Below, one piece after another: positions 451 through 12,979 of a stretch of 32,000 bases of DNA (position 1 is its first letter; each line of letters starts with the position of its first letter). A program made the position numbers and the translations under genes. The notes under the pieces were generated by a model, which worked only from the letters and a program-made list of their open reading frames with translations, made no database searches and was not told the origin of the DNA. Source of the DNA: Cylindrospermopsis raciborskii Cr2010 (GTDB lineage: Bacteria; Cyanobacteriota; Cyanobacteriia; Cyanobacteriales; Nostocaceae); NCBI RefSeq assembly GCF_003367075.2, contig NZ_CP065936.1, positions 1,920,001-1,952,000 of the forward strand. The letters run 5' to 3'.

Positions 451-1146
451 ATGAAAGGGAAACAAGTTTTACTAACAGGTGGAACAGGTGGACTGGGCTT
501 AGGGGTCACACCCACGATTTTGGCTCAAGGTGCATATCTCACCATTCCGTACCGCAATCTTACTTATGTCGAAAGATTAAAAACAATCTTACCCCCTGCG
601 GATATGGCCAGGATTCAATTTATTCCCGTAAATCTTGAAAGCGATTCTTCCGTGGAAGAACTGGTTAATAGCATGACCAAAGTCGACGTCTTAATTCATT
701 TAGTCGGTGGTTTTTACTATGGCAAAACCCATGAATGCAGTTTTGACGATTGGAAACATCAATTTGAATTAAATGTTTACACAACTTTCTTAACCTGCAA
801 ATATAGTTTAAAAAGAATGCTAGAGAATGGTTATGGGCGCATTGTTACTGTTAGTTCTCGTGCTGGTTTAGAGCCTGCTGCCAATCTAGCAGCTTATTCT
901 GCATCTAAAGCCGCTGTGATAGCTCTAACTAAGGCTATAGCTGATGAAACTAGGGGCACTAATATCACCGCAAATACGGTTTTACCCAGTGTTATTGATA
1001 CACCCACTAATAGGGAGGCAATGGGTGTGGAAAAAGCTGGCGAATGGGTCAAACCCGAATCCATTGGCCAGGTAATTTGTTTTTTGGCTTCGGAAGCTGC
1101 TGGGGATATCCGGGGTGCTACTATTCCCGTTTATGGCAATATTTAA
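451..1146 (+). CDS. Short-chain dehydrogenase/reductase (SDR) family oxidoreductase
   Basis: 231-aa ORF with an N-terminal TGGTGGLG dinucleotide-binding motif, the YSASKAA (YxxxK) catalytic motif, and classical SDR length. Confidence 0.85.
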   Translation: MKGKQVLLTGGTGGLGLGVTPTILAQGAYLTIPYRNLTYVERLKTILPPADMARIQFIPVNLESDSSVEELVNSMTKVDVLIHLVGGFYYGKTHECSFDDWKHQFELNVYTTFLTCKYSLKRMLENGYGRIVTVSSRAGLEPAANLAAYSASKAAVIALTKAIADETRGTNITANTVLPSVIDTPTNREAMGVEKAGEWVKPESIGQVICFLASEAAGDIRGATIPVYGNI

Positions 1147-1352
1147 GGGGAGCGATCGCATGGTTTGGGGATATTTTTTAAAAACCCCCCAATCCTCTCG
1201 AAGCAATGTTGAGTGGAGTATCTAATCCAGGCGATCGCATTTCTTAACACATATTTAGATGCCCGACCTAATCATTGTTATTCTTTACTACTTGAAGTAA
1301 AATTAGTATCCATATTTAGTTGATTCATCGCGCAAATATACAACGCTAAGTT

Positions 1353-1571
1353 ATGTTGAAGCAAGAAGCACAATGGCTAGGAAAAATGATTTATTCTCTT
1401 GATCAAGATAGTATTTTTCCATTATTAAATCTTGGAAGTTCCAGTCAAAACTTCCGAGAAAAACAACAACCTTGGATATATCAATTCTTGTTTAAACCTG
1501 CTCAGCAATCCGCTGTAGTTTTAATTCCCCACGCCCTGGGTATCCTAGAAAATGTGGAAATTGGGCTTTAA
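1353..1571 (+). pseudogene. N-terminal fragment of a probable class I SAM-dependent methyltransferase (copy 1)
   Basis: 72-aa ORF. The segment LLNLGSSSQNFREKQQPWIYQFLFKP resembles the N-terminal GxGxG-like region of small methyltransferases, but the catalytic core is missing. An identical copy lies at 5633..5851. Confidence 0.35.
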
Positions 1572-1616
1572 TTCCTCTAGAAATAGCGATCGCACAGCCA
1601 AAAACATTTTGTTGAA

Positions 1617-2249
1617 CTATCCTTTCTCCGGATTGGTTAGTTTAATAACAAAATTTCTCAATACTTTCAACATAGCCAAATTAACTTCATGTCCCGCATC
1701 AAAGTGATGGTACTCAACAGGAACTCCCAAGGATTGTGCAACCTGTTGGCTTTTAATTGCAGCTGAGAGGGGAACAATCTGGTCTTGGGTTCCGTGCATA
1801 ATCAGAGTTGGGGGGAACTGGCGTTTTTCCATAGTGGAGACTTGAGGATGTAAATAGCCACTCATGACTGCTAAACCGGCTAAGGGTAAGTTGAGACCCA
1901 CATCTAAGGTCATGGCGCCACCCTGGGAAAATCCGGTCAAAATAGTTTTAGACAGGGGAATTCCTGTGGTGGTTGGTAGGGATTGCAACCAGTCTATTAA
2001 CAATTGACGGCTTACTACTAGTCCTTAATACATTTTGTCGTCTCGTAGATCATACCATGCTCTACCATTATCGCTATAGGGATAGGGATAGGGGGCATTA
2101 GGAAGCAAAAATTCATACTCAGGTAGGTTGACATGGGGTAATAAGGATGCTACGTCCTCAGCATTGGCACCCCAACCGTGTAAGGTGACAATTAGTCCCA
2201 GTGGAGTTTTTGTGGTTTGGGCGGAAATTTTAATAACATCTAAGGTCAT
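1617..2249 (-). pseudogene. Phospholipase/carboxylesterase-family alpha/beta hydrolase, copy 1, interrupted by an in-frame TAA
   Basis: ORFs 2025..2249 and 1617..2003 are two halves of one gene of about 205 aa. It carries the HGWG oxyanion region, the GFSQGG nucleophile elbow, and the C-terminal HGTQD...GH triad residues. Codon 2025-2027 reads TAA here, whereas copy 2 has GAA (6302-6304). Confidence 0.85.
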
Positions 2250-2394
2250 ATAGACAATCAGAAAAATTAACTGTTATTAATTTTACTTAGTTTTGTCTCC
2301 CATAGCAACACTTTTTTCTTGAGGGAGAATTTGAGCGGGAACTTCATTTTCTGGAATGGGAAATCCGCCATATGTGGGATAACCGTGCACATCA

Positions 2395-2630
2395 AAGTAG
2401 GCTCTTTGAGGATAATCTGAATATAAACACTGAGAGAATAGTTCAGATGTTAACATTATTCATTGATTGGGATTATTGCATGCTTGGTCTTAAAAATTTA
2501 TCTAAAGGAAATTATAAGTCGCCTCGATCCCGAAGAATATTATATCGCTTTTATTGTCAAACCAGATAGTTTTTCTACTTAAGGGATAAGTTACTACATG
2601 ATTTAATGTTTCCCAATATAGTGGTAATGC
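2395..2630 (+). repeat. Internally deleted relic of the 8400..11464 cassette unit
   Basis: 2395-2508 matches 8400-8513, 2509-2581 matches 11171-11243 (inside the third cassette gene), and 2581-2630 matches 11408-11464. Both deletion junctions fall on short shared sequences: aagg at the first, and a single shared a at the second. Confidence 0.9.
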
Positions 2631-2633
2631 TTT

Positions 2634-2671
2634 ACCGCCGATCTCCCGTAGGGAGCGCCTTGCAATCTCCC
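2634..2671 (+). repeat. 38-nt direct repeat, copy A (accgccgatctcccgtagggagCgccttgcaatctccc)
   Basis: Identical except for 1 nt to 5339..5376. A degenerate third copy lies at about 5120..5153. It contains a small CTCCC-GTA-GGGAG hairpin. Confidence 0.9.
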
Positions 2672-2735
2672 ACCAGAAACCATCCTCTATAGTATTGTTA
2701 ACTTTTGTAAGTTGTAACAAAAAAAACGATAAAAA

Positions 2736-2744
2736 TGCTACAAT
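2736..2744 (+). promoter_or_regulatory. Possible extended -10 promoter element (TGcTACAAT) for the CARF gene
   Basis: TGnTACAAT lies about 31 nt upstream of the ATG at 2775. No convincing -35 element was seen. Confidence 0.25.
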
Positions 2745-2774
2745 GATGCGTGAACACTTGCAAAAGCAAAAACT

Positions 2775-3890
2775 ATGGTTAAGACAGTAATATGTTCCGT
2801 AGGAACCAGTGCGGCAAAAGCGATCGGAAAACCGGGAGATCTCCTGAATTGGGTTAATCAACAAGAAAGCCGAGAAATCGCCGCCGAAAATATATTTCTC
2901 ACCTTTAGAGATAAGGAACCAATAGAAGCAAATCTTAGGGATTTATCAGCAGAAATTCACTCCCTAGTTAGAATTGGCATCGATAATGGATATAGAATTA
3001 TTCTCCTGGCTTCCCAGACCGAAGATGGTTACTGCTGCGCCAGCGCTATCGAGAAATATCTTAAATATTATTGGACTAGTATTGTTACTAAAGTTCACCA
3101 GGTGACGGGATTACAAGTTAATAATGCTGACCTTTTTCGCAGTCAGGGGGTAGTGGAATTTGTTCGCCATATTATTCGAGAAATTTATCAATATGGTTCG
3201 GAAAATATTATCCTTAATCCTACTGGTGGTTATAAAGCTTTAGTTCCTTATACCGTGCTACTGGGGATGTTAAAAGGGGTAAAGTGCGATTATATTTTTG
3301 AGCAGTCCACTACTCTCCTAGAATTGCCACCTTTACCCGTAGAATTCAAGCGATCGCAATTTGAAATCTACAAAGAATTATTTGAGGAAATCGAACGAGA
3401 AAGCAGCATTTCCCTCCAAAAATGGGAGGAAAAAATTTCCAGGCAAGAAAGAAAATTCTTAGAACCTTTGACGGAATTAGTCAACAACGAAATAACCCTT
3501 TCTGCGGTGGGTTTTTTATTTCTTGATGAGATTCGTTCTCCAGGGGTTTTAGTACCTTTTTTATCCAGAAAAGCGATCAATGATTGTTTCGATGATTTAT
3601 CCCAATTAGATAACTGTGATCCCTTCCGTTATTTAGAAAGGGTTGCTACTCATTATGATGAAACTATTCAACAAGCAGAACATATCAATGTTGGCGATGG
3701 TTTACGCTGGCTAAAACCAGGGCGAACAACTGATCGCTATCTAGTTTCTAAAGATCGTTGGCGATTATTAGTCTGGCGGGCAATTCGTGAGGATAAAGTG
3801 GGTTCAAATTACGCTCATAAAGTAGAAGTTAACTCTAAAAATAAACGCGCCCATTATCCCTTTCTCAGGATGGAATTTGTGAGAGAATAA
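2775..3890 (+). CDS. CARF-domain protein (APE2256/TIGR02619-like CRISPR-associated ring-nuclease/effector family) with a C-terminal RelE/ParE-like domain (Cami1-like architecture, tentative)
   Basis: 371 aa. CARF motifs present: N-terminal ICSVGTS, LSAEIHSL, and NPTGGYKALVPY (the TGGxK motif). The C-terminal roughly 90 aa (LRWLKPGRTTDRYLVSKDRWRLLVWRAIRED) resembles the beta-strand core of RelE-type mRNA interferases. Confidence 0.7.
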   Translation: MVKTVICSVGTSAAKAIGKPGDLLNWVNQQESREIAAENIFLTFRDKEPIEANLRDLSAEIHSLVRIGIDNGYRIILLASQTEDGYCCASAIEKYLKYYWTSIVTKVHQVTGLQVNNADLFRSQGVVEFVRHIIREIYQYGSENIILNPTGGYKALVPYTVLLGMLKGVKCDYIFEQSTTLLELPPLPVEFKRSQFEIYKELFEEIERESSISLQKWEEKISRQERKFLEPLTELVNNEITLSAVGFLFLDEIRSPGVLVPFLSRKAINDCFDDLSQLDNCDPFRYLERVATHYDETIQQAEHINVGDGLRWLKPGRTTDRYLVSKDRWRLLVWRAIREDKVGSNYAHKVEVNSKNKRAHYPFLRMEFVRE

Positions 3891-4171
3891 GCAACTTAAC
3901 ACAATTAATTAGAAACAGAAATGTTGAATGTCGTTGCAAAACTTTATATAGTTAGATATAGTACCTCTATCAAAGGTGAAAATGTCAACATCTCATAATA
4001 TCTTCCATCCAATGAACATAACTGATTTATTGACACATACAAGCTGGAAGATAACGGAACTTATCTAACATTTTTTCATCCCATTCATATTAGAAAAGGA
4101 TAGGTATGTTGCTGAGATTATGGCAGAAATTCAAGATATATTAAATCTAAGTCAGTTTTGAATGGTGATAA

Positions 4172-5002
4172 ATGAGTGAATTAACTGAAAAAATATCTTC
4201 GGTGCGTCATTATTTTGTGGATGAAGCAGGAGATCCTGTAATTTTTAATGGTAAAGGTAAGATTTTAATTGGATCAGATGGATGTTCTCATTTTTTTATA
4301 CTTGGTCTATTAGACGTTGCTAATACTGAATCTTTATCTCAAGATTTGGAAAATTTAAGAGCTAATTTATTAGCTGATCCATATTTTAAGAAAGTTCCTT
4401 CAATGCAACCTGAAAATAAAAAAACTGCTTTATATTTTCATGCTAAAGACGATATTCCTGAAGTGAGAAGAGAAGTTTTTAATTTGTTGCAGCGACATGA
4501 ACTCAAATTTTTTGCTGTGGTGAGAAGTAAAGATAAGTTACTTGAGTATGTTAGACAACGTAATCAAAATGACCCTGGTTATCGTTATCAACAAAATGAA
4601 TTATACGATTATTTGACGCGGCGTTTATTTAAGAATCGTTTACACAAGGATGATGAATATAATATTTGCTTTGCTAGACGAGGTACTTCTGATAGAACCG
4701 AAGCCTTCAAAGTTGCTTTAGAATCAGCTAGAGCAAAATTCGCTGAACAATGGGGTATTACCAGTACAGCAACTATTAATATAACTGCTAATATACCTCC
4801 CAATTCTCCAAGTTTACAAGCGGTAGATTACTTTCTGTGGGCTTTACAACGCCTATATGAGAGAGGTGAGGGTAGATATGTTGAGTTTCTTTGGTCAAAA
4901 TTTGCACTCGTGCATGATATTGATGACACAAAATTTGCTAGGTACGGCGTGTACTATACTCGTAAAAACCCTCTAACAGCCACAAAAATACCAGGGATAT
5001 AG
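4172..5002 (+). CDS. DUF3800-family protein
   Basis: 276 aa. It has the N-terminal HYFVDEAGD (DUF3800 DESG-like acidic motif) and the C-terminal SLQAVDYFLWAL (LQxxD motif). The gene is visibly more AT-rich than its neighbours. Confidence 0.6.
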   Translation: MSELTEKISSVRHYFVDEAGDPVIFNGKGKILIGSDGCSHFFILGLLDVANTESLSQDLENLRANLLADPYFKKVPSMQPENKKTALYFHAKDDIPEVRREVFNLLQRHELKFFAVVRSKDKLLEYVRQRNQNDPGYRYQQNELYDYLTRRLFKNRLHKDDEYNICFARRGTSDRTEAFKVALESARAKFAEQWGITSTATINITANIPPNSPSLQAVDYFLWALQRLYERGEGRYVEFLWSKFALVHDIDDTKFARYGVYYTRKNPLTATKIPGI

Positions 5003-5208
5003 GATTGTTAAGGCTTTGCTTGACAATCACACGGCATGAAGCCGAATTTTGTCCCTGGTTCATTATAGTATATCATTTTTAGACCAATTGGTAAAGGAAC
5101 TGGGGGATAATCTCCAAATGCGATCTCCCTAGTGCGAGTGCTTCGCAATCGCTCTTTTAATTTAAGACAATTTCACATTGTAACATAACTAGTAAAACAC
5201 ATGTTGTG

Positions 5209-5233
5209 TGTTCAATTCCATCCACCCACGGCA
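5209..5233 (+). other. tRNA-like 3' fragment (T-loop, 3' T-stem and acceptor 3' strand); not a functional tRNA
   Basis: The sequence gTTCAATTCCATCCACCCACGgca looks like a T-loop (TTCAATT), a 3' T-stem, a 7-nt acceptor strand and a discriminator. The upstream bases cannot pair to form the 5' half. Confidence 0.3.
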
Positions 5234-5238
5234 AAACC

Positions 5239-5291
5239 AGTCAGTTGAAAACTGACTTGAGCTTTGAGACAGGGAATAAATTCCCTGTCTC
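5239..5291. other. Two adjacent perfect hairpins (8-bp stem at 5239-5257; 26-nt perfect palindrome at 5266-5291)
   Basis: The hairpins are AGTCAGTT-gaa-AACTGACT and GAGACAGGGAAT-aa-ATTCCCTGTCTC. Neither strand has a U-tract after them, so they are not classical intrinsic terminators. Confidence 0.6.
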
Positions 5292-5338
5292 CCCCACAGA
5301 CAGTCTCCAGGCGTGGGTTGACTCAAACTGCACACAAA

Positions 5339-5376
5339 ACCGCCGATCTCCCGTAGGGAGTGCCTTGCAATCTCCC
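5339..5376 (+). repeat. 38-nt direct repeat, copy B
   Basis: accgccgatctcccgtagggagTgccttgcaatctccc. It ends 4 nt before duplication copy 2 begins. Confidence 0.9.
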
Positions 5377-5632
5377 GTGGTGGGGATATCCGGGGTGCTA
5401 CTATTCCCGTTTATGGCAATATTTAAGGGGAGCGATCGCATGGTTTGGGGATATTTTTTAAAAACCCCCCAATCCTCTCGAAGCAATGTTGAGTGGAGTA
5501 TCTAATCCAAGCGATCGCATTTCTTAACACATATTTAGATGCCCGACCTAATGATTGTTATTCTTTACTACTTGAAGTAAAATTAGTATCCACATTTAGT
5601 TGATTCATCGCGCAAATATACAACGCTAAGTT

Positions 5633-5851
5633 ATGTTGAAGCAAGAAGCACAATGGCTAGGAAAAATGATTTATTCTCTTGATCAAGATAGTATTTTTCC
5701 ATTATTAAATCTTGGAAGTTCCAGTCAAAACTTCCGAGAAAAACAACAACCTTGGATATATCAATTCTTGTTTAAACCTGCTCAGCAATCCGCTGTAGTT
5801 TTAATTCCCCACGCCCTGGGTATCCTAGAAAATGTGGAAATTGGGCTTTAA
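5633..5851 (+). pseudogene. Methyltransferase-like N-terminal fragment (copy 2)
   Basis: Protein sequence is identical to 1353..1571. Confidence 0.35.
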
Positions 5852-5896
5852 TTCCTCTAGAAATAGCGATCGCACAGCCAAAAACATTTTGTTGAA

Positions 5897-6526
5897 CTAT
5901 CCTTTCTCCGGATTGGTTAGTTTAATAACAAAATTTCAATACTTTCAACATAGCCAAATTAACTTCATGTCCCGCATCAAAGTGATGGTACTCAACAGGA
6001 ACTCCCAAGGATTGTGCAACCTGTTGGCTTTTAATTGCAGCTGAGAGGGGAACAATCTGGTCTTGGGTTCCGTGCATAATCAGAGTTGGGGGAACTGGCG
6101 TTTTTCCATAGTGGAGACTTGAGGATGTAAATAGCCACTCATGACTGCTAAACCGGCTAAGGGTAAGTTGAGACCCACATCTAAGGTCATGGCGCCACCC
6201 TGGGAAAATCCGGTCAAAATAGTTTTAGACAGGGGAATTCCTGTGGTGGTTGGTAGGGATTGCAACCAGTCTATTAACAATTGACGGCTTACTACTAGTC
6301 CTTCATACATTTTGTCGTCTCGTAGATCATACCATGCTCTACCATTATCGCTATAGGGATAGGGATAGGGGGCATTAGGAAGCAAAAATTCATACTCAGG
6401 TAGGTTGACATGGGGTAATAAGGATGCTACGTCCTCAGCATTGGCACCCCAACCGTGTAAGGTGACAATTAGTCCCAGTGGAGTTTTTGTGGTTTGGGCG
6501 GAAATTTTAATAACATCTAAGGTCAT
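5897..6526 (-). pseudogene. Phospholipase/carboxylesterase-family hydrolase, copy 2, disrupted by two frameshifting deletions
   Basis: The G-run at 6088-6092 has 5 G where copy 1 has 6 (1810-1815). A 2-nt deletion near 5937 corresponds to copy 1 position ~1658. The ORF 6080..6526 therefore ends prematurely (…RQFPQL*). Confidence 0.85.
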
Positions 6527-6631
6527 ATAGACAATCAGAAAAATTAACTGTTATTAATTTTACGTAGTTTTGTCTCCCATAGCAAGACTTTTTTTTGTCT
6601 GTTCTGCTATAATTTTAGGATAGTTCTATGG

Positions 6632-6847
6632 ATGTCTAAAACTATGAAGTGGCGAGTCATACTTGAACCCGATCCAGAGACCAGGGAATGGGGAATTTGG
6701 TGTCCAGAGTTGCCTGGATGCACATCTGCTGGTATCACACAAGAGGAGGCTCTTAACAATATACGGGAAGCCATTGAGCTTTATTTGCAGCCTGATAACA
6801 TTGAACTTTTACCTGGAGCATTAATCTGCGAGGTTATAGTCGGATGA
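6632..6847 (+). CDS. hicB: HicB-family antitoxin (UPF0150 fold)
   Basis: 71 aa. The segment W.VILEPDPETREWGIWCPELPGCTSAGITQEEALNNIREAIELYL is the typical HicB N-terminal domain pattern. Confidence 0.75.
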   Translation: MSKTMKWRVILEPDPETREWGIWCPELPGCTSAGITQEEALNNIREAIELYLQPDNIELLPGALICEVIVG

Positions 6848-6924
6848 CTCGGCTCAAGAGAATGAATGCTGACGAGGTTGAGCGCATATTACGCAAGTAT
6901 GGCTTTGAACTGATTGATATTTAA
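6844..6924 (+). pseudogene. hicA: HicA toxin remnant (first 26 codons only)
   Basis: My own translation is MTRLKRMNADEVERILRKYGFELIDI*. The ATG overlaps the hicB stop (GGATGA). It matches the HicA N-terminus (xxxEVxKxLxKxGFxL) but lacks the catalytic His region. Homology stops where the IS remnant begins. Confidence 0.6.
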
Positions 6925-7199: not shown

Positions 7200-8140
7200 T
7201 TGTCTATTGAGAATAGAGTCATTAATTGATCAAATTTGGTATCACCAATACCAATGCACAACTTGGACACAATCCTCAAAATCTTAACATTCAACACTTC
7301 TGAGTGTAGCTGAATCCTTTAAATCGTACATTGAGCTAGTAAAAGCTGCAAAAAAGGGCGAAGTTTCCCAAAAACCAAAATTACCTAATTACTGTAGATG
7401 AAATAAAATCTGATGTTGATAGAAATAATGTTTTAGGGATTGACCACGGGTTAAATAACTGGTTAACTTGTGTTTCTAATCTGGGAACATCATTTATTGT
7501 TGATGGACTTCATTTAAAAAGTTTAAATCAGTGGTACAACAAATCAGTAGCTAAACTTAAAAGTGATAAACCGCAAGGTTTTTGGTCTAATAGATTAGCT
7601 GCTATTACTGAAAAAAGAAACCGACAAATGCGTGATGCAGTTAACAAAGCTGCAAGAATAGTCGTTAACCACTGTATTGAAAATAAGATTGGTGCTATTG
7701 TTTTTGGATGGAATAAAGGACAAAAAGATAGTATTGATTTGGGGTCTAAAAACAATCAGAAGTTTGTCCAAATTCCCACAGCAAGATTAAAAGACCGTAT
7801 TGCTCAATTATGTAAACAATACGGAATAGATTTTATTGAAACAGAAGAATCATACACTTCTCAATCATCGTTTTTTGATTGCGACAATATACCTAAATTC
7901 GGTGAAAAACCCGAAGGGTGGGAAGCAAGCGGGAAACGAGTTAGTCGTGGAGTATATGAAACTTCTGATGGGTTCAAAATTAATGCGGACTGTAATGGTG
8001 CTGCTAATATTTTGAAAAAAGTAGCGGTGATGCTAGGAATTGATCTTAGCGGAATCAGTAGAGGCTGTTTAAGCCAGCCTCAGAAAGTTCGTTTATGGAC
8101 TCTTCAGAAATCTCCGTGTCTTCAGACCGGAGAAGCTTAA
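7200..8140 (+). pseudogene. tnpB: TnpB (IS605 OrfB, RuvC-like RNA-guided nuclease family), frameshifted and internally deleted
   Basis: An open frame runs 7343-8140 and contains GIDHGLNN (RuvC-I), ETEESYTSQ (RuvC-II) and NADCNGAANILKK (RuvC-III). An upstream fragment, FKSYIELVKAAKKGEVSQKPKLPNY, lies in a different frame (about 7315-7390). Only about 15 codons separate LPNY from GID, whereas I recall roughly 100 in intact TnpB. The left boundary is approximate. Confidence 0.75.
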
Positions 8141-8215: not shown

Positions 8216-8315
8216 GGGGAATTCCTGTGGTGGTTGGTAGGGATTGTAACCAGTCTATTAATAATTGACGGCTTGCTACTAGTCCTTCATACATTTTGTC
8301 ATCTCGTAGATCATA
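8216..8315 (-). pseudogene. Third, 100-bp internal fragment of the carboxylesterase gene
   Basis: Matches 6232-6331 and 1955-2054 with 4 substitutions. It carries the GAA (Glu) codon found in copy 2, not the TAA of copy 1. Confidence 0.9.
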
Positions 8316-8757
8316 TGTTTCCTAAAGTGTTCATAATGCTATTGTAACAGAGATAGTACCCATTATGTATTCATTTTACTATATTATGGAAATATTACTA
8401 AGTAGGCTATTTGAGAATAATTTGAATATAAACACTGAGAGAATAGTTCAAATGTTGACATTATTCATTGATGAGGATTATTGTATGCTTGAGCTTAAAA
8501 ATCTATCTAAAGGTAGATGCAATCGGATATTCTAATTAATTACTGTTTCATTGTTTACTATAACTGGAAGTTGCACTCCATTTCAAAATATGAAAATTTA
8601 TTCATTCTTGTGGTTTCCTCTTGTACTATCTAGTTTAAAGGAATGAAATCCCTGTGTAAAAACCAGAGATTTTTATGTCATGAAACCTCAAATTTAGAAT
8701 TGCTGTAAAATTGGAGACTAGCCCGATGAAAATCTATCAATCTGTTCAATCTTGGTT

Positions 8758-10170
8758 ATGAAAGCCAAATTTATTTTAAACTCACTCAAATCAGATCGAA
8801 GGGAATTAGACGTCAGTTTTCTCGTGGTTTCTGGGATTGGCTTAGTAATCACCCTAGCCATCTACGGTCTGCTATTTCCGATCAAAAATACTTTTATTGG
8901 GATTTTATTGTATGAGAGGGGATTCACTCAAATTCTCACGATTGCCTTTGCCGGAATTGTAGCGGCTTTAACCCTGCTAAAATTTTTTAAGCTTCAAAAA
9001 CAATCGCGAACTTTGGGGGAAGAACTAATTCCATCTGACATATCCCTTGACGATCCAACTAGCGATCAGGTCATCAATCTTCAACAGAATCTAGCTCAAG
9101 AGAAGAATGTATTAGCCCGTCGTTGTAGTCGGCTACTAGCCGTGTATATTAACTCTGGTAATCGTCAAATTGCTAACGAATTTTCTTTGGAAGATTCCGC
9201 TTTTTACCATAGTGCCTCCGAGTCTTCCTATACCATTCCGAAGATTTTAGTTTGGGCAATTCCCCTATTGGGATTTATCGGCACGGTGTTCGGTATTAGT
9301 GCTTCCGTGGGGGGATTTACAGGGTTTCTGGAAAATGCCGGCGATATCGACCAAATTAAACAGGGTATCGGTACTGTGACACAAGGATTAGCGATTGCAT
9401 TTGATACTACTCTTTTGGCTTTATTTATGAGCGTATTGGTGATGTTGCCCTTAGTGATGGTCGAACGTTTAGAATCCCGTCTGCTACTGGCGATCGATAT
9501 CTACATCAACGATAAGGTATTACCACGATTAAAAGATACAAGTAAAGGGAGCGAGACCATTAGCGAAGAAATGGTCGAACAAGCAGTAATAAAAGCTGTT
9601 CAACAAAACTTCCTTGCTCCTGAAACTTTAATCGAACCAGCCAAACATTATGCAGAACAAGCGGCGGTAGCATTAGCAAAAGGGTTCACTCAAGAAGTAC
9701 ACAGCATACAAGAAGCCATTACTCAAACAGTTCAAGAAATTCAAACTGTAAGGGAGAGGGTAACTAGAGAAAGTCAGGATTTTTCGACCTTTCTTGGTGA
9801 CCAGATAAAACTACAGCAAGGGCTAGTAAATCAGATTCAAACAACTGTCCAGGAGATTCATCGAAATCATCTAGCTGTGTCCGATGGATTTAGAGAACAA
9901 GCTCTAGTAGTTGGTTATAAACTGGAGGCAGCGGCGCAAGCCTTAGAACAAAGAATAAGCAGTTTAGAGAAATACGCGACCCAAATCAGTGAGATTGATA
10001 ATTTGCAGCGTAGTTTAGACAATAATCTCCGTAATCTCAAAGAAAAAGCCGTTTTGGAAGGAGTTTTAGGGGAAATTCAGACTAGCTTGGAGCGGTTAAG
10101 ACCAACGTTAGACCAACTGAATAAGCCGCGCCGGATTCTACTTTTAGAACAAGAAGATCAAAGAACTTAA
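8758..10170 (+). CDS. MotA/TolQ/ExbB-family proton-channel protein with a C-terminal coiled-coil tail of about 220 aa (ZorA-like architecture)
   Basis: The track ORF starts at TTG 8752; ATG 8758 is the more likely start. There are two N-terminal hydrophobic helices, then the channel core ILVWAIPLLGFIGTVFGI…GLAIAFDTTLLALFMSVLVMLPLVMVE, then a Q/E/L-rich heptad-like region running to the C-terminus. Confidence 0.75.
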   Translation: MKAKFILNSLKSDRRELDVSFLVVSGIGLVITLAIYGLLFPIKNTFIGILLYERGFTQILTIAFAGIVAALTLLKFFKLQKQSRTLGEELIPSDISLDDPTSDQVINLQQNLAQEKNVLARRCSRLLAVYINSGNRQIANEFSLEDSAFYHSASESSYTIPKILVWAIPLLGFIGTVFGISASVGGFTGFLENAGDIDQIKQGIGTVTQGLAIAFDTTLLALFMSVLVMLPLVMVERLESRLLLAIDIYINDKVLPRLKDTSKGSETISEEMVEQAVIKAVQQNFLAPETLIEPAKHYAEQAAVALAKGFTQEVHSIQEAITQTVQEIQTVRERVTRESQDFSTFLGDQIKLQQGLVNQIQTTVQEIHRNHLAVSDGFREQALVVGYKLEAAAQALEQRISSLEKYATQISEIDNLQRSLDNNLRNLKEKAVLEGVLGEIQTSLERLRPTLDQLNKPRRILLLEQEDQRT

Positions 10171-10173
10171 ATT

Positions 10174-10635
10174 ATGCCTAGAGCGATCCGTAGCCGACAG
10201 TCTATACAGATAGATTTATTTCCATTTTTATCGATTCTAGCCTGTACGATTGGCAGTCTTATTCTCTTAATTATAGTGCTTACTTCCGAGATTATCGGCA
10301 GCCAAAAGCAAGTAACAATTGTAGCTAAGAGTGATAATGGTTTAAATCGATCAAAACAGCCCCGTTATATCGAGTGTAAAGCCGATGGTGTAATTTTGCA
10401 TCCCGACCAAGTTTTGGTACCTTCCTCTGGTTTAGAAAGTCAGTTCTCACCACTCGGAATATTACTAAAGAAAATCGATCCCGGTCAAGAATATCTAATC
10501 GTCGTGGTCAGATCCGACGGCATCGATACCTTTAGAAGAGTCAGAAGTTTGATTGAGGGTAGGGGAATAGATATTGGTTATGAGCCTTTGGATAAAGATT
10601 GGAAGTTAAATATAAAATCAGAAATAAAAAACTGA
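10174..10635 (+). CDS. ExbD/TolR-like single-pass membrane protein (paralog 1)
   Basis: 153 aa, starting 3 nt after the upstream stop. It has an N-terminal TM helix (IDLFPFLSILACTIGSLILLIIVL) and a C-terminal block EYLIVVVRSDGIDTFRRVRSLIEGRGIDIGYEP that resembles the ExbD periplasmic domain. Confidence 0.6.
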   Translation: MPRAIRSRQSIQIDLFPFLSILACTIGSLILLIIVLTSEIIGSQKQVTIVAKSDNGLNRSKQPRYIECKADGVILHPDQVLVPSSGLESQFSPLGILLKKIDPGQEYLIVVVRSDGIDTFRRVRSLIEGRGIDIGYEPLDKDWKLNIKSEIKN

Positions 10636-10647
10636 CTGGACAAATAA

Positions 10648-11358
10648 ATGAGAAAACTAAGAAAGTACAATCATTCAAGTTTATCTGCAGGTAATCTAGA
10701 TTCGTTCCTTGACATCATGACCAATACGGTAGGTGTTCTCATGTTTGTCAGTTTATTTATAACTCTGGTAGCCGTGCAGTCAGGAACCACGATCCGAACT
10801 CCTCTAGTCTCTCAAACCGAAAAAAGTCCTCATCTTTTTGAGGTGGTAGATAACCACGTTAGTTATCTAGATACCGAGGAGATTTCTCGACAAATTAAGG
10901 ATTTTGTTAAAACCTTACCTACCTGTACAGAACCTATAGAGTCTTATTCCTACGGACTGGATCAATTAACGGTATACATAGAAGAACTGCGCCAATATAA
11001 AAGCTGTCTTGATGAAAAAGTCAGCAGATTTAGGGAATTTAGACCGCAAACAGAATCTTATCAAGTTCAATTAGTAGATATTGAATCATTTTCATGGCAG
11101 TACCAAAAACTTAACAAAAATATAGGAACATCTAACGAGCAGTTATCAGAAGCTGATTCTCAGTTTAAGGAAATTATAAGTCGCCTCGATCCCGAAAAAG
11201 ATTATATCGCTTTTATTGTCAAACCAGATAGTTTTTCTACTTACAGAAAGGCGAGAGAAATCGCTTGGAAAAAGGGATTTAATGTCGGTTGGGAGCCTCA
11301 AAAACTAGAGCAATTTATTATTCTTGGATCATCGGGTAGAAGTATCGGTATTCAGTAG
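10648..11358 (+). CDS. ExbD/TolR-like single-pass membrane protein (paralog 2, with an inserted middle domain of about 100 aa)
   Basis: 236 aa, after a 12-nt gap. The N-terminal LDSFLDIMTNTVGVLMFVSLFITLV matches the ExbD/TolR PxxDVxLVLL-type TM helix, including the Asp. The C-terminal DYIAFIVKPDSFSTYRKAREIAWKKGFNVGWEP is paralogous to the previous gene. Confidence 0.6.
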   Translation: MRKLRKYNHSSLSAGNLDSFLDIMTNTVGVLMFVSLFITLVAVQSGTTIRTPLVSQTEKSPHLFEVVDNHVSYLDTEEISRQIKDFVKTLPTCTEPIESYSYGLDQLTVYIEELRQYKSCLDEKVSRFREFRPQTESYQVQLVDIESFSWQYQKLNKNIGTSNEQLSEADSQFKEIISRLDPEKDYIAFIVKPDSFSTYRKAREIAWKKGFNVGWEPQKLEQFIILGSSGRSIGIQ

Positions 11359-11474
11359 CCTCCCCTACGAAAACCAATTTCTATCAAGTGATAAATAGCA
11401 TCTTCTCAAGGGATAAGTTACTATTTCCTACATGATTTAATGTTTCCCAATATAGTGGTAAAGCATGAGTACCC

Positions 11475-11840
11475 TTAAATTTCTTCATCAATCTCTGATT
11501 CTAATACGCACATTTTCAGAAGATCGGTTTCCCCAATTCGGGAATCAAAAACCCAACGGGCTTTCTTATCGTTATTATTGATAGTAAAAGTGATTAACTC
11601 TTGCTCTGCACGGTTAAAAAGAGCATCTCTTGCTGTACCTATGGAAACCAACTCGCCATTTAATGCCAATCCGTCACGGTTTAGCAGGTTCTGTTGATAT
11701 GATTGGCGCAGTAATAACAAGGATTGAAGCAAAGAGGATTTACCGGTGCTGTTTAATCCAGAAAGTAATGTTAGTGGTCTCAGGACAAAAGATTGATTTT
11801 CAAATGGCTTAAAATTTTCTAAGTTTAAGCTATTTAACAT
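11475..11840 (-). pseudogene. AAA15/ABC-like ATPase (DUF3696-type), truncated after about 120 aa
   Basis: The N-terminus, LNLENFKPFENQSFVLRPLTLLSGLNSTGKSSLLQSLLLLRQS, includes the Walker A motif. There is no Walker B motif or C-terminal domain. The stop lies 10 nt from the right end of the cassette unit (11464). The start overlaps the DUF262 stop by 7 nt. Confidence 0.65.
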
Positions 11841-12979
11841 GATAAAATCTCCCGAACTATTTGGTTAATTTGCTCAAACCTATATATAACCTGATCACTG
11901 GCTTGAGAAATGGATTTCTCAAAGTTGGCATCTGTTTCAATTTTTTTCATAAATGTTTTATTTAACAAGTCTTTATAATTTATCAATTTATCAATTTGCC
12001 CCGGTGTTAACCTACTCAAAATAACTGACCATGCTTCAAACAGAGATTTATTAACAGGGAACCTTGTTTTGCCATTTTTGGGAGGTTTACGGAAAGCGTT
12101 ACTGCTAAAAATGCTATCTGCTGCTCTCATGGATTTAATGAAGTCTCGTTTCATATCCTTGAGCCTAGTATCCTCTAAATTATTTAACTTCGACATGGCA
12201 CTATTTAAAAACTCATTTCTTCCTTGAGTATAATCATGATAATCTATCAACCAAAATGCAATAAAACCTATAATATATTCATGATCGTCCATTCTTTTCC
12301 TTCTTTTTTCACTGATGTTTATCAACTTCTTAAACTCTGCTAATTCTGAAAACTCCTTCAGAATCCTCAAGGACTTTCCAGGGTACATAGCTTGACGCAG
12401 CTCCTGGTTATTCAGTGATACACCACCAGTATTAATTCTTTGAAAAATATTATATTTTACTTCCGGGGGAGTTCCGGACTCAACTAAGCAGACTATTAAC
12501 TCTGTTTCTTCTATCCTTCTTTGGTGATGACGAGACAATTCATCATATTTTTTGTGTTCTAAATCCCTCAGAAATTGTAAATCAGTTAATCTCAGTTCCT
12601 GGTCAAGAATGAATTTTTTAAATGTATTAATTCTTTGAATACCATCTATCACTAACCACTTATCATCAGTAGTTGCATCCACATAAAATGCTGGAAGTGG
12701 AATCCCAATTAAAACAGATTCAATTAAACGACTCTTATTTTTGTCATTCCAAATGTCGGCATGACGTTGAAAATCAGGGGCTAAATCAATTTCGTCATGC
12801 TGAATTCTTTTTAGCAATATATCTATTGACATCATCTTAGTCTTGATCCTAATTTTTGTAGGATCAAACGGTTCTAGGTTTTCAATCTCATCCTCTTCAA
12901 CATCTTCATCACTGTCATCATATATCTCCCTAATTGGCAGTTCCATTTGTTGAGTGTTAATACCCTTAGTAATTGTCAT
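11834..12979 (-). CDS. DUF262 (ParB-like/GmrSD N-terminal type) domain protein
   Basis: 381 aa with an acidic N-terminus, then DFQRHADIWNDKNKSRLIESVLIGIPLPAFYV…VIDGIQRINTF, which is the DUF262 signature (QR…W…LI.S…P.P…DG.QR). I saw no DUF1524/HNH motif in the C-terminal half. Confidence 0.75.
   Translation of the reverse strand: MTITKGINTQQMELPIREIYDDSDEDVEEDEIENLEPFDPTKIRIKTKMMSIDILLKRIQHDEIDLAPDFQRHADIWNDKNKSRLIESVLIGIPLPAFYVDATTDDKWLVIDGIQRINTFKKFILDQELRLTDLQFLRDLEHKKYDELSRHHQRRIEETELIVCLVESGTPPEVKYNIFQRINTGGVSLNNQELRQAMYPGKSLRILKEFSELAEFKKLINISEKRRKRMDDHEYIIGFIAFWLIDYHDYTQGRNEFLNSAMSKLNNLEDTRLKDMKRDFIKSMRAADSIFSSNAFRKPPKNGKTRFPVNKSLFEAWSVILSRLTPGQIDKLINYKDLLNKTFMKKIETDANFEKSISQASDQVIYRFEQINQIVREILSC

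Follow-up and report, generated by a model that had tools for sequence, protein, structure and literature searches.

We examined a segment at positions 2634-5376 of a 32,000-nt stretch of the Cylindrospermopsis raciborskii Cr2010 chromosome (the window, counted from its first letter); the segment is part of a defence island that borders on a type III-B CRISPR (Cmr) operon. Two genes fill the segment, both on the + strand: gene 1 (cami1) encodes a protein with an N-terminal CARF domain and a RelE-like C-terminus, and gene 2 encodes a DUF3800 protein. A 38-nt direct repeat stands at either end (Table 1). Because the window starts inside cmr2/cas10, cami1 lies just 2.6 kb from cas genes. Translated, the cmr2/cas10 start shows no difference from the N-terminal residues of a 551-aa Cmr2 in a related strain (L066; loci used for comparison carry such handles throughout); this Cmr2 has the Pfam Cmr2_N and Cas10 palm2 domains and an intact GGDD motif. 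The gene order in related strains is Cmr operon, SDR gene, CARF gene, DUF3800 gene, a 72-aa open reading frame (ORF), esterase gene and HicB gene. An initial annotation of this DNA had suggested that the CARF and DUF3800 proteins could be an unrecognised accessory pair, carried on a module whose 38-nt repeats might be att-like sites.

Table 1. Features in and around the segment (positions in the window; nt, nucleotides; aa, amino acids)
Feature	Positions	Strand	Remarks
cmr2/cas10, first 65 codons	3-197	-	type III-B (Cmr) operon leaving the window at its left end
Duplication copy 1	1098-2317	+	last 49 nt of SDR gene, 72-aa ORF and esterase gene (- strand, nonsense mutation)
Relic mosaic	2395-2630	+	matches 8400-8513 (90%), 11167-11243 (97%) and 11401-11464 (84%)
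Left 38-mer	2634-2671	+	1.5 units of a 24-nt minisatellite (ATCTCCCGTAGGGAGYGCCTTGCA)
Cami1-family CARF-RelE effector gene	2775-3890	+	371 aa; Pfam, PADLOC, PDB profile, Foldseek
IS4-family insertion sequence, terminal fragment	3916-4086	+	76-88% identical to insertion sequence ends on Nostocales plasmids
hsdM-like (N6_Mtase-associated) gene relic, last 24 codons	4090-4161	+	encodes LEKDRYVAEIMAEIQDILNLSQF, then a stop codon
DUF3800 gene, predicted RNase H-fold nuclease	4172-5002	+	276 aa
Three-way-junction RNA motif	4987-5062	+	76 nt; spans the DUF3800 stop codon
Degenerate, weak third copy of the 38-mer	5121-5151	+	local alignment score 32 (highest score among 3000 shuffled 80-mers, 29)
Two strong hairpins	5238-5291		CAGTCAGTT..AACTGACTTG and GAGACAGGGAAT..ATTCCCTGTCTC; read from the sequence
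Right 38-mer	5339-5376	+	1.5 units in all cases; abuts duplication copy 2
Duplication copy 2	5378-6594	+	esterase gene here frameshifted

The product of gene 1 resembles Cami1, a dimeric CARF-RelE enzyme that is activated by cyclic tetra-adenylate (cA4) and cleaves mRNA at the A site of the ribosome (PMC11229360). Its N-terminal CARF domain matches Pfam Cas_APE2256 at 7.4e-24, scores above the cut-off of TIGR02619 and contains the conserved GTSA motif of the Cami1 CARF domain. PADLOC gives an end-to-end match to CARF7--CARF_RelE_like (E = 1.6e-171), and a profile of 24 homologues aligns residues 5-370 with the Cami1 structures 8PHB (apo) and 8PHJ (cA4-bound on the 70S ribosome) at E = 1e-117. 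In Foldseek searches, an AlphaFold2 (AF2) model with a predicted local distance difference test score (pLDDT) of 85.8 matches apo Cami1 with template modelling (TM) scores of 0.81-0.83 at 39-40% identity. Its CARF fold also matches CARF ring nucleases and Csa3, and its C-terminus aligns to the RelE, ParE and HP0894 toxins with probabilities of 0.9-1.0, which upholds the earlier suggestion of a RelE-type, Cami1-like C-terminal domain. Homology to Cami1 is thus collinear over the full length, CARF followed by RelE fold, and gene 1 likewise adjoins a type III-B operon whose Cas10 retains GGDD. As judged by sequence, gene 1 is a Cami1 orthologue beside a type III-B operon, in what would be its expected role. 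Its best match is a C. raciborskii protein, and cami1 is intact in all ten strain loci compared. Around Cami1-like genes in metagenomes (33 non-redundant loci from 49), the neighbours include repeat-associated mysterious proteins (RAMPs; 28 ORFs), Cmr3 (9), Cas10 (9), Cas6 (5) and Csx3 (4).

Gene 1 nevertheless departs from Cami1 in several ways. It belongs to a cyanobacterial clade that PADLOC labels 'CARF_RelE_like', and the SDR gene, in this strain joined by a duplicated segment, stands between it and the cas genes. Downstream of gene 1 there is no Cam3 gene; Cam3, not DUF3800, is the partner reported to stand immediately downstream of cami1 in all of the 12 type III-B loci encoding it (PMC11229360). 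Finally, a position that is His in one Cami1 entry and Ala in the 8PHJ ribosome complex aligns with a near-invariant Glu339 in gene 1, whose R338 and D340 are invariant within the clade. The His that was mutated in 8PHJ is presumably catalytic.

Gene 2 encodes, as the initial annotation had it, a DUF3800 protein with an N-terminal acidic motif. Pfam PF12686 is matched at 43.6 bits (cut-off 21, E = 6.6e-11), and the D17-E18 pair in YFVDEAGD is invariant in 24 homologues, as are Q216 and D219. DUF3800 is a predicted RNase H-fold nuclease in the literature, and structure prediction for gene 2 gives an RNase HII-like fold. The AF2 model (pLDDT 82.9, predicted TM score (pTM) 0.85) matches RNase HII in seven archaeal chains at E ≤ 7.5e-4, with a probability of 1.00 and TM scores of 0.37-0.53 by Foldseek; the top matches, 1eke and 3p83, have E values of 5e-6 to 2e-5. 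A Cylindrospermopsis (Raphidiopsis) protein matches it with 100% identity. Members of its subfamily retain 60-70% identity between Cyanobacteria and Chloroflexi, and their genes usually follow restriction-modification (RM), helicase or Abi genes. Two of the ten strain loci carry a disrupted DUF3800 gene, L065 through a 144-nt deletion and L068 through a 1-nt deletion that shifts the frame.

DUF3800 proteins are known from several defence systems: as the effector of type VII retrons (PMC7736814), as TPR-fused accessories of Cas12a2/Cas12a3 and type VI-F loci (PMC10910872, PMC12669027, PMC13594972) and as Csx32 of Cas13 CASK loci (bioRxiv 10.64898/2026.08.25.746378). Gene 2 shares with these proteins the PF12686 domain, the predicted RNase HII-like fold, the combination of an N-terminal DE with a C-terminal QxxD and the location in a defence island. 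By contrast, it is a stand-alone protein in which a Pfam scan detects no TPR domain, and no reverse transcriptase (RT), Cas12 or Cas13 gene adjoins it. PADLOC assigns gene 2 to DUF3800_VII, and we considered a retron type VII on the strength of that label. We rejected it, as positions 2300-5700 contain no RT-sized ORF, no retron- or RT-associated Rfam family matches, and the gene upstream is cami1.

The two genes appear to have reached the segment separately. A solo copy in Microcystis shares 86.5% identity with the DNA of cami1 and the 54 nt upstream of it (2721-3891), and a solo gene in Sphaerospermopsis (L061) shares 91.6% with that of DUF3800 and its flanks (4087-5098); the 38-mer is absent from both of these loci. 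The 281 nt between the genes are accounted for by two remnants. One is the end of an insertion sequence (IS) that is 88% identical to an IS end of a Sphaerospermopsis NIES-73 plasmid and whose relatives are annotated as transposase or IS4 family. The other is the tail of an hsdM-like gene, which matches ILEKDRRVAEIMSEIKAILNPDNF plus stop codon, with which the ORF preceding DUF3800 in L061 terminates. DUF3800 was evidently captured from an RM context like that of Sphaerospermopsis L061. Copies of the IS end are dispersed on Nostocales plasmids, and the copy in the segment carries sigma-70-like promoter matches (3924-3962) directed at DUF3800. We also considered a known DUF3800-associated RNA motif within the gap, but Rfam identifies none there. 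A plasmid or phage origin of the entire module was rejected as well, because only fragments of it match PLSDB and phage genomes.

Co-occurrence points the same way. DUF3800 of the gene 2 subfamily is encoded in none of the 49 Cami1-like metagenome loci, and none of the eight distinct DUF3800 loci from outside the genus has a Cami1-like CARF gene or a cas gene as a neighbour. At those loci DUF3800 comes after an Eco57I/MmeI-type RM gene or after an SNF2 helicase gene accompanied by an AIPR gene, lies near DarT-Macro (DarTG) genes or sits within an integrase-carrying element. DUF3800 thus shows no enrichment near Cami1-like genes in the loci compared, and the proposed CARF-DUF3800 accessory pair finds no support in these counts, in the solo relatives or in the remnants that lie between the genes. 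On this comparative evidence we take the pairing to be an accident of defence-island turnover and not a functional unit. At L061 itself, a tRNA gene (6805-6878, + strand) precedes the solo DUF3800 gene by about 1.1 kb, beside N6_Mtase fragments, and the DUF3800 islet there may sit at a tRNA-linked integration hotspot.

The 38-nt repeats are where the initial annotation placed them, and they enclose exactly two same-strand genes. They lie on the + strand and differ at a single position (C or T at position 23); matches with ≤3 mismatches number two in the 32-kb window and none in 100 shuffles. The left repeat begins 3 nt ('ttt') past the end of relic homology at 2630, and the right one ends 1-4 nt ahead of the duplicated 3' end of the SDR gene (the BLAST boundary is at 5378, with identity from about 5381). 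Two hairpins are present between gene 2 and the right repeat, at about 5238-5260 and 5266-5291, as had been described; this stretch is missing in strain L005, where homology stops at 5190. A tRNA-like fragment reported at about 5205-5236 could not be recovered, with nothing detected by ARAGORN or by Rfam at E ≤ 10 and no T-stem that could be drawn by eye.

Comparison among strains reveals what the repeats are. Each 38-mer consists of one 24-nt unit plus the initial 14 nt of the next, and the left 38-mer, 1.5 units long in the window, opens a tandem array of 2.5, 3.5, 5.3 or about 13 units in other strains; Tandem Repeats Finder reports 100% matches for the 5.3-unit array. In related loci the 38-mer is found only at the cami1/DUF3800 segment. 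Strains L066, L070 and L072, which have an identical SDR gene and lack both genes, contain no copy of the 38-mer at ≤6 mismatches, nor its 13-nt hairpin core at ≤1 mismatch. The repeat is therefore neither an attB site nor a target-site duplication and must be part of the inserted DNA. More widely, its 19-nt core is absent from 185,579 GTDB species-representative genomes, apart from one chance match in a Mageeibacillus metagenome-assembled genome, and from all IMG/VR contigs. We conclude that the 38-mers are a locus-specific minisatellite within inserted DNA and not recombination sites or a mobility signal.

Other identities for the repeat were tried and set aside. As in integrative elements bounded by attL and attR, direct repeats mark both ends of a segment that varies among strains. 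In contrast to such elements, the segment has no recombinase gene (its two ORFs are cami1 and DUF3800) and no tRNA target, the empty sites lack the repeat and the repeat itself is an expandable minisatellite. A CRISPR repeat relic is contradicted by the lack of an array in the window or beside the Cmr genes of L002, L065 and L068, and by the lack of spacers between the 24-nt units. A dispersed repeat, of the kind known as repetitive extragenic palindromes or miniature inverted-repeat transposable elements, does not fit two copies in 32 kb and a core missing from reference genomes; the concern that the 38-mer might be common across the genome gives way to its specificity for this locus. Nor is it a structured element, since its own fold is no better than that of shuffled sequences (z = -0.03). 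A cassette array was rejected too, because no extra copy lies between cami1 and DUF3800 and the sole other copy, downstream of gene 2, is weak.

The segment is flanked by a much longer repeat. A comparison of the window with itself (blastn) reveals a 1220-nt direct duplication with 99.2% identity, the copies differing by 7 substitutions and 2 insertions or deletions (indels), so that cami1 and DUF3800 are enclosed by a direct duplication, on the kilobase scale, of the chromosomal flank. Every strain that has cami1 and DUF3800 also has the flank duplication, and the module-free strains L066, L070 and L072 have the flank in single copy. The window has the 1220-nt form of the duplication, as does L065, an independent assembly of 3.35 Mb that reproduces the arrangement of the window. 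It measures 376 nt in at least five other assemblies, including the complete chromosomes AP018317 and CP060822, where the equivalent of 1474-2614 has been deleted at an ATATA microhomology. L005 has an additional 232-nt deletion that removes the right 38-mer. The presence or absence of the segment is best explained by homologous recombination between these flanking duplications, 1.2 kb long or 376 nt in some strains, which would be the simplest route.

The flank copies also bear the marks of exchange. In the window, L002, L065 and L066, a 51-nt indel (alignment positions 189-239) and several single-nucleotide polymorphisms have a mosaic distribution among copies, a sign that copies and strains have often exchanged sequence by recombination or gene conversion. 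An attempt to derive the empty-site strains from a single crossover between flank copies failed, as the copies are too mosaic among strains to show one switch point. Within the 317 nt that separate duplication copy 1 from the left 38-mer lies a mosaic of relics, which recurs in L005 and L065; one piece (2574-2630) matches 11401-11464, and another (2505-2581) has its source in the 3' end of the three-gene set at 8752-11358. Both copies of the esterase (Abhydrolase_2) gene in the window, at 1617-2249 and 5922-6526 on the - strand, are disrupted, the former by a nonsense codon at 2025-2027 and the latter by a 1-nt indel near 6078; other strains retain an intact gene of 210 aa. A third, partial copy places part of the esterase region at 8216-8315 and the 2395-2508 segment at 8400-8513, and the island has undergone repeated segmental duplication.

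We interpret the segment as a strain-variable composite insertion that holds two separately acquired genes, with the 38-mers as a minisatellite and with gain and loss through flank recombination, and give this reading a probability of roughly 0.8. Several points weigh against it. Both genes are adjacent and on the same strand in every module-bearing strain, and this constant adjacency means that a lineage-specific functional link is possible on sequence alone. The two 38-mers end at exactly the same points, which would also fit terminal redundancy or a site-specific event, and the 24-nt unit, counted in the source strain within the 32-kb window, might have copies elsewhere in that genome. No excision or circular product has been observed. 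On the functional side, the alignment of His with Glu339 leaves RNase activity of the cyanobacterial clade as a prediction. TPR-fused DUF3800 proteins are reported as accessories of class 2 CRISPR loci (PMC10910872, PMC12669027), and type III is named in passing in one DUF3800 paper (PMC13594972).

Some of these same points would favour a functional type III accessory pair of the CARF-RelE and DUF3800 proteins, travelling on a mobile module with att-like ends: the 38-mers bracket both genes precisely, the pair keeps its arrangement wherever it occurs, some strains have the module and others lack it, and DUF3800 domains do serve as accessories of some CRISPR systems (PMC10910872, PMC12669027, PMC13594972, bioRxiv 10.64898/2026.08.25.746378). 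Such a pair is nonetheless very unlikely, given empty sites that lack the 38-mer, the missing recombinase gene and tRNA target, the two co-occurrence counts of zero, the solo habit of the closest relatives of both genes and a reported downstream partner of cami1 that is Cam3 (PMC11229360). The IS end and hsdM relic that separate the genes, and the decay of DUF3800 to a pseudogene in L065 and L068, argue in the same direction. We consider it improbable, although less readily dismissed, that the 38-mers are the terminal redundancy of a 2,705-nt circular or concatemeric element, of which illegitimate recombination captured a little over one unit length. The identical start and end points of the two copies, the absence of the repeat from module-free strains and a possible microhomology of the unit (CCCGTAGGGAG) to the SDR sequence (GCTGGGGAT) at the right junction would all follow from such a capture. 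However, the 2.7 kb contain no replication or rolling-circle gene, neither PLSDB nor the phage genomes hold a free or plasmid copy, none of the strains has the predicted pre-insertion state (duplication and relics without the genes), and the segment is a patchwork of separately derived pieces. Least credible of all is an assembly artefact, in which two strain variants present together were collapsed or joined into a chimera. Two arrangements do exist among strains, the window resembles a hybrid of them and its flank copies are nearly identical, but L065 shows the identical arrangement in an independent assembly, and the 376-nt duplication recurs in at least five others.

In the composite-insertion reading that we prefer, the segment would have been inserted into the defence island beside the Cmr operon of the Raphidiopsis/Cylindrospermopsis chromosome. 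By homology, the CARF dimer of Cami1 would bind cyclic tetra-adenylate made by the neighbouring Cas10 after the Cmr complex senses foreign RNA, and the RelE domain would then cleave mRNA in the ribosomal A site, bringing translation to a halt. DUF3800 would have arrived with the tail of an RM gene and its own 76-nt structured RNA, been placed next to cami1 by an IS-mediated rearrangement, and probably acts independently of type III signalling. Upstream of cami1 the 24-nt minisatellite would expand by slippage, and homologous recombination between the flank duplications could lead to gain or loss of the whole segment among strains.

The RNA that would have come with DUF3800 emerged from a BLAST search of the segment against phage genomes, in which two of 50,697 records match, both Cylindrospermopsis phages and both in the region of the DUF3800 stop codon. 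Aligning cyanobacterial, Chloroflexi-type and viral loci delineated a 76-nt three-way junction. It begins with the 5' strand of P1 (CCAGGGA/UCCCUGG), followed by AUAUAGG, a variable P2 hairpin and UCACA, and continues with P3 (CGGC-AUGAA-GCCG), AAUUUUGU and the 3' strand of P1. The minimum-free-energy fold has the same three stems, with z = -5.6 in the window and -5.6 to -6.7 overall. With a covariance model (R1), 23 instances are retrieved at E < 0.01. In the resulting alignment, which is model-fitted and so biased toward structure, 16 of 21 pairs have changed on both sides, and paired cells make up 87.8%, compared with 25-44% in slid-partner controls; none of 500 shuffles attains the observed score. 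Variants of P1 can be read in the raw sequences as CCGCAGA/UCUGUGG, CCCGGCG/CGCCGGG, AGAGGCAU/AUGCCUCU and GGUGGUG/CACCACC.

The motif shows strong covariation and follows DUF3800 in 8/8 distinct loci of the subfamily, across phyla. The overlap of the gene end with the motif (AUA-UAG) predicts a terminal Ile, and 102 of 120 homologues end in Ile, mostly as PGI. Copies that have no DUF3800 gene beside them are present in 13 IMG/VR contigs, in the two Cylindrospermopsis phages and on a Synechococcus elongatus plasmid, where the motif lies between a recombinase gene and an Abi gene. The phage copies are 88-89% identical and include a compensatory U-A to C-G change in P2. One of these phages, CrV-01T (L104, MH636380), has an annotated CRISPR array at 39192-39521 and a long inverted duplication with mirrored gene blocks, which accounts for its second copy of the motif.

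Structured RNAs beside DUF3800 genes have precedents. Eleven orphan RNA motifs, I-XI, have been linked to this family (Weinberg et al. 2017, PMC5737381; Rfam RF02967, RF02968 and RF02969), and the present motif resembles them as a covarying structured RNA encoded directly beside a DUF3800 gene. It differs, in a comparison made through the families held in Rfam, by overlapping the stop codon and by also occurring in phages and a plasmid without DUF3800. A search of Rfam 15 at E ≤ 10 yields no family for it, and the Rfam motif DUF3800-VII is a different, GC-rich RNA. A viral contig, L075, carries a DUF3800-VII RNA (4166-4254, - strand, 74.9 bits) about 100 nt downstream of the new motif and on the opposite strand, and therefore provides one DUF3800 gene with two different RNA motifs nearby.

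Type III toxin-antitoxin systems (ToxIN) combine a nuclease gene with an adjacent structured RNA, and phage-encoded pseudo-antitoxin RNAs exist. The DUF3800 locus has a comparable layout, with a predicted nuclease gene, a structured RNA next to it and a structurally maintained copy of that RNA in phages of the same host. Here, however, the RNA is a single copy 3' of the gene and not a 5' tandem array, and to our knowledge DUF3800 is not a known ToxN-like RNase. DUF3800 and the motif might form a self-contained RNA-protein defence unit, with the RNA as regulator, antitoxin or scaffold, and phages CrV-01T and Cr-LKS4 might have captured the RNA as a decoy; we regard this as a speculative and rather doubtful proposal.

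The rest of the defence island holds HicB, TnpB fragments, a three-gene set with a MotA/ExbB-like protein, a truncated NsnB and NsnA. The HicB-like antitoxin gene (6632-6847) has no adjacent HicA gene, which is present in strain L070, and a C-terminal TnpB fragment (Cas12f1-like TNB) lies at 7628-8140. The first product of the three-gene set (8752-11358, + strand) is a MotA/ExbB-like membrane protein with weak similarity to ZorA, and the other two match no family; the set could be an uncharacterised Zorya-like system. At 11475-12979 on the - strand, an NsnB ATPase gene, truncated after about 120 aa, comes after the NsnA (GmrSD_N/DUF262) gene. The truncation point coincides with the exact end of the relic homology at 11401-11464, and this Nsn-type defence pair is broken in the strain.

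For the cami1-DUF3800 segment the outcome is mostly corrective: a known effector, a coincidental neighbour and a local minisatellite. The locus illustrates how a defence island can be built up and lost, with IS-mediated joining of separately acquired genes and with kilobase flank duplications that permit homologous recombination. The more useful by-product is the 3' RNA motif of a widespread and highly conserved DUF3800 subfamily, the item that deserves follow-up. As a structure common to the host gene and to phages of the same host, it offers a concrete experimental handle on DUF3800 function.

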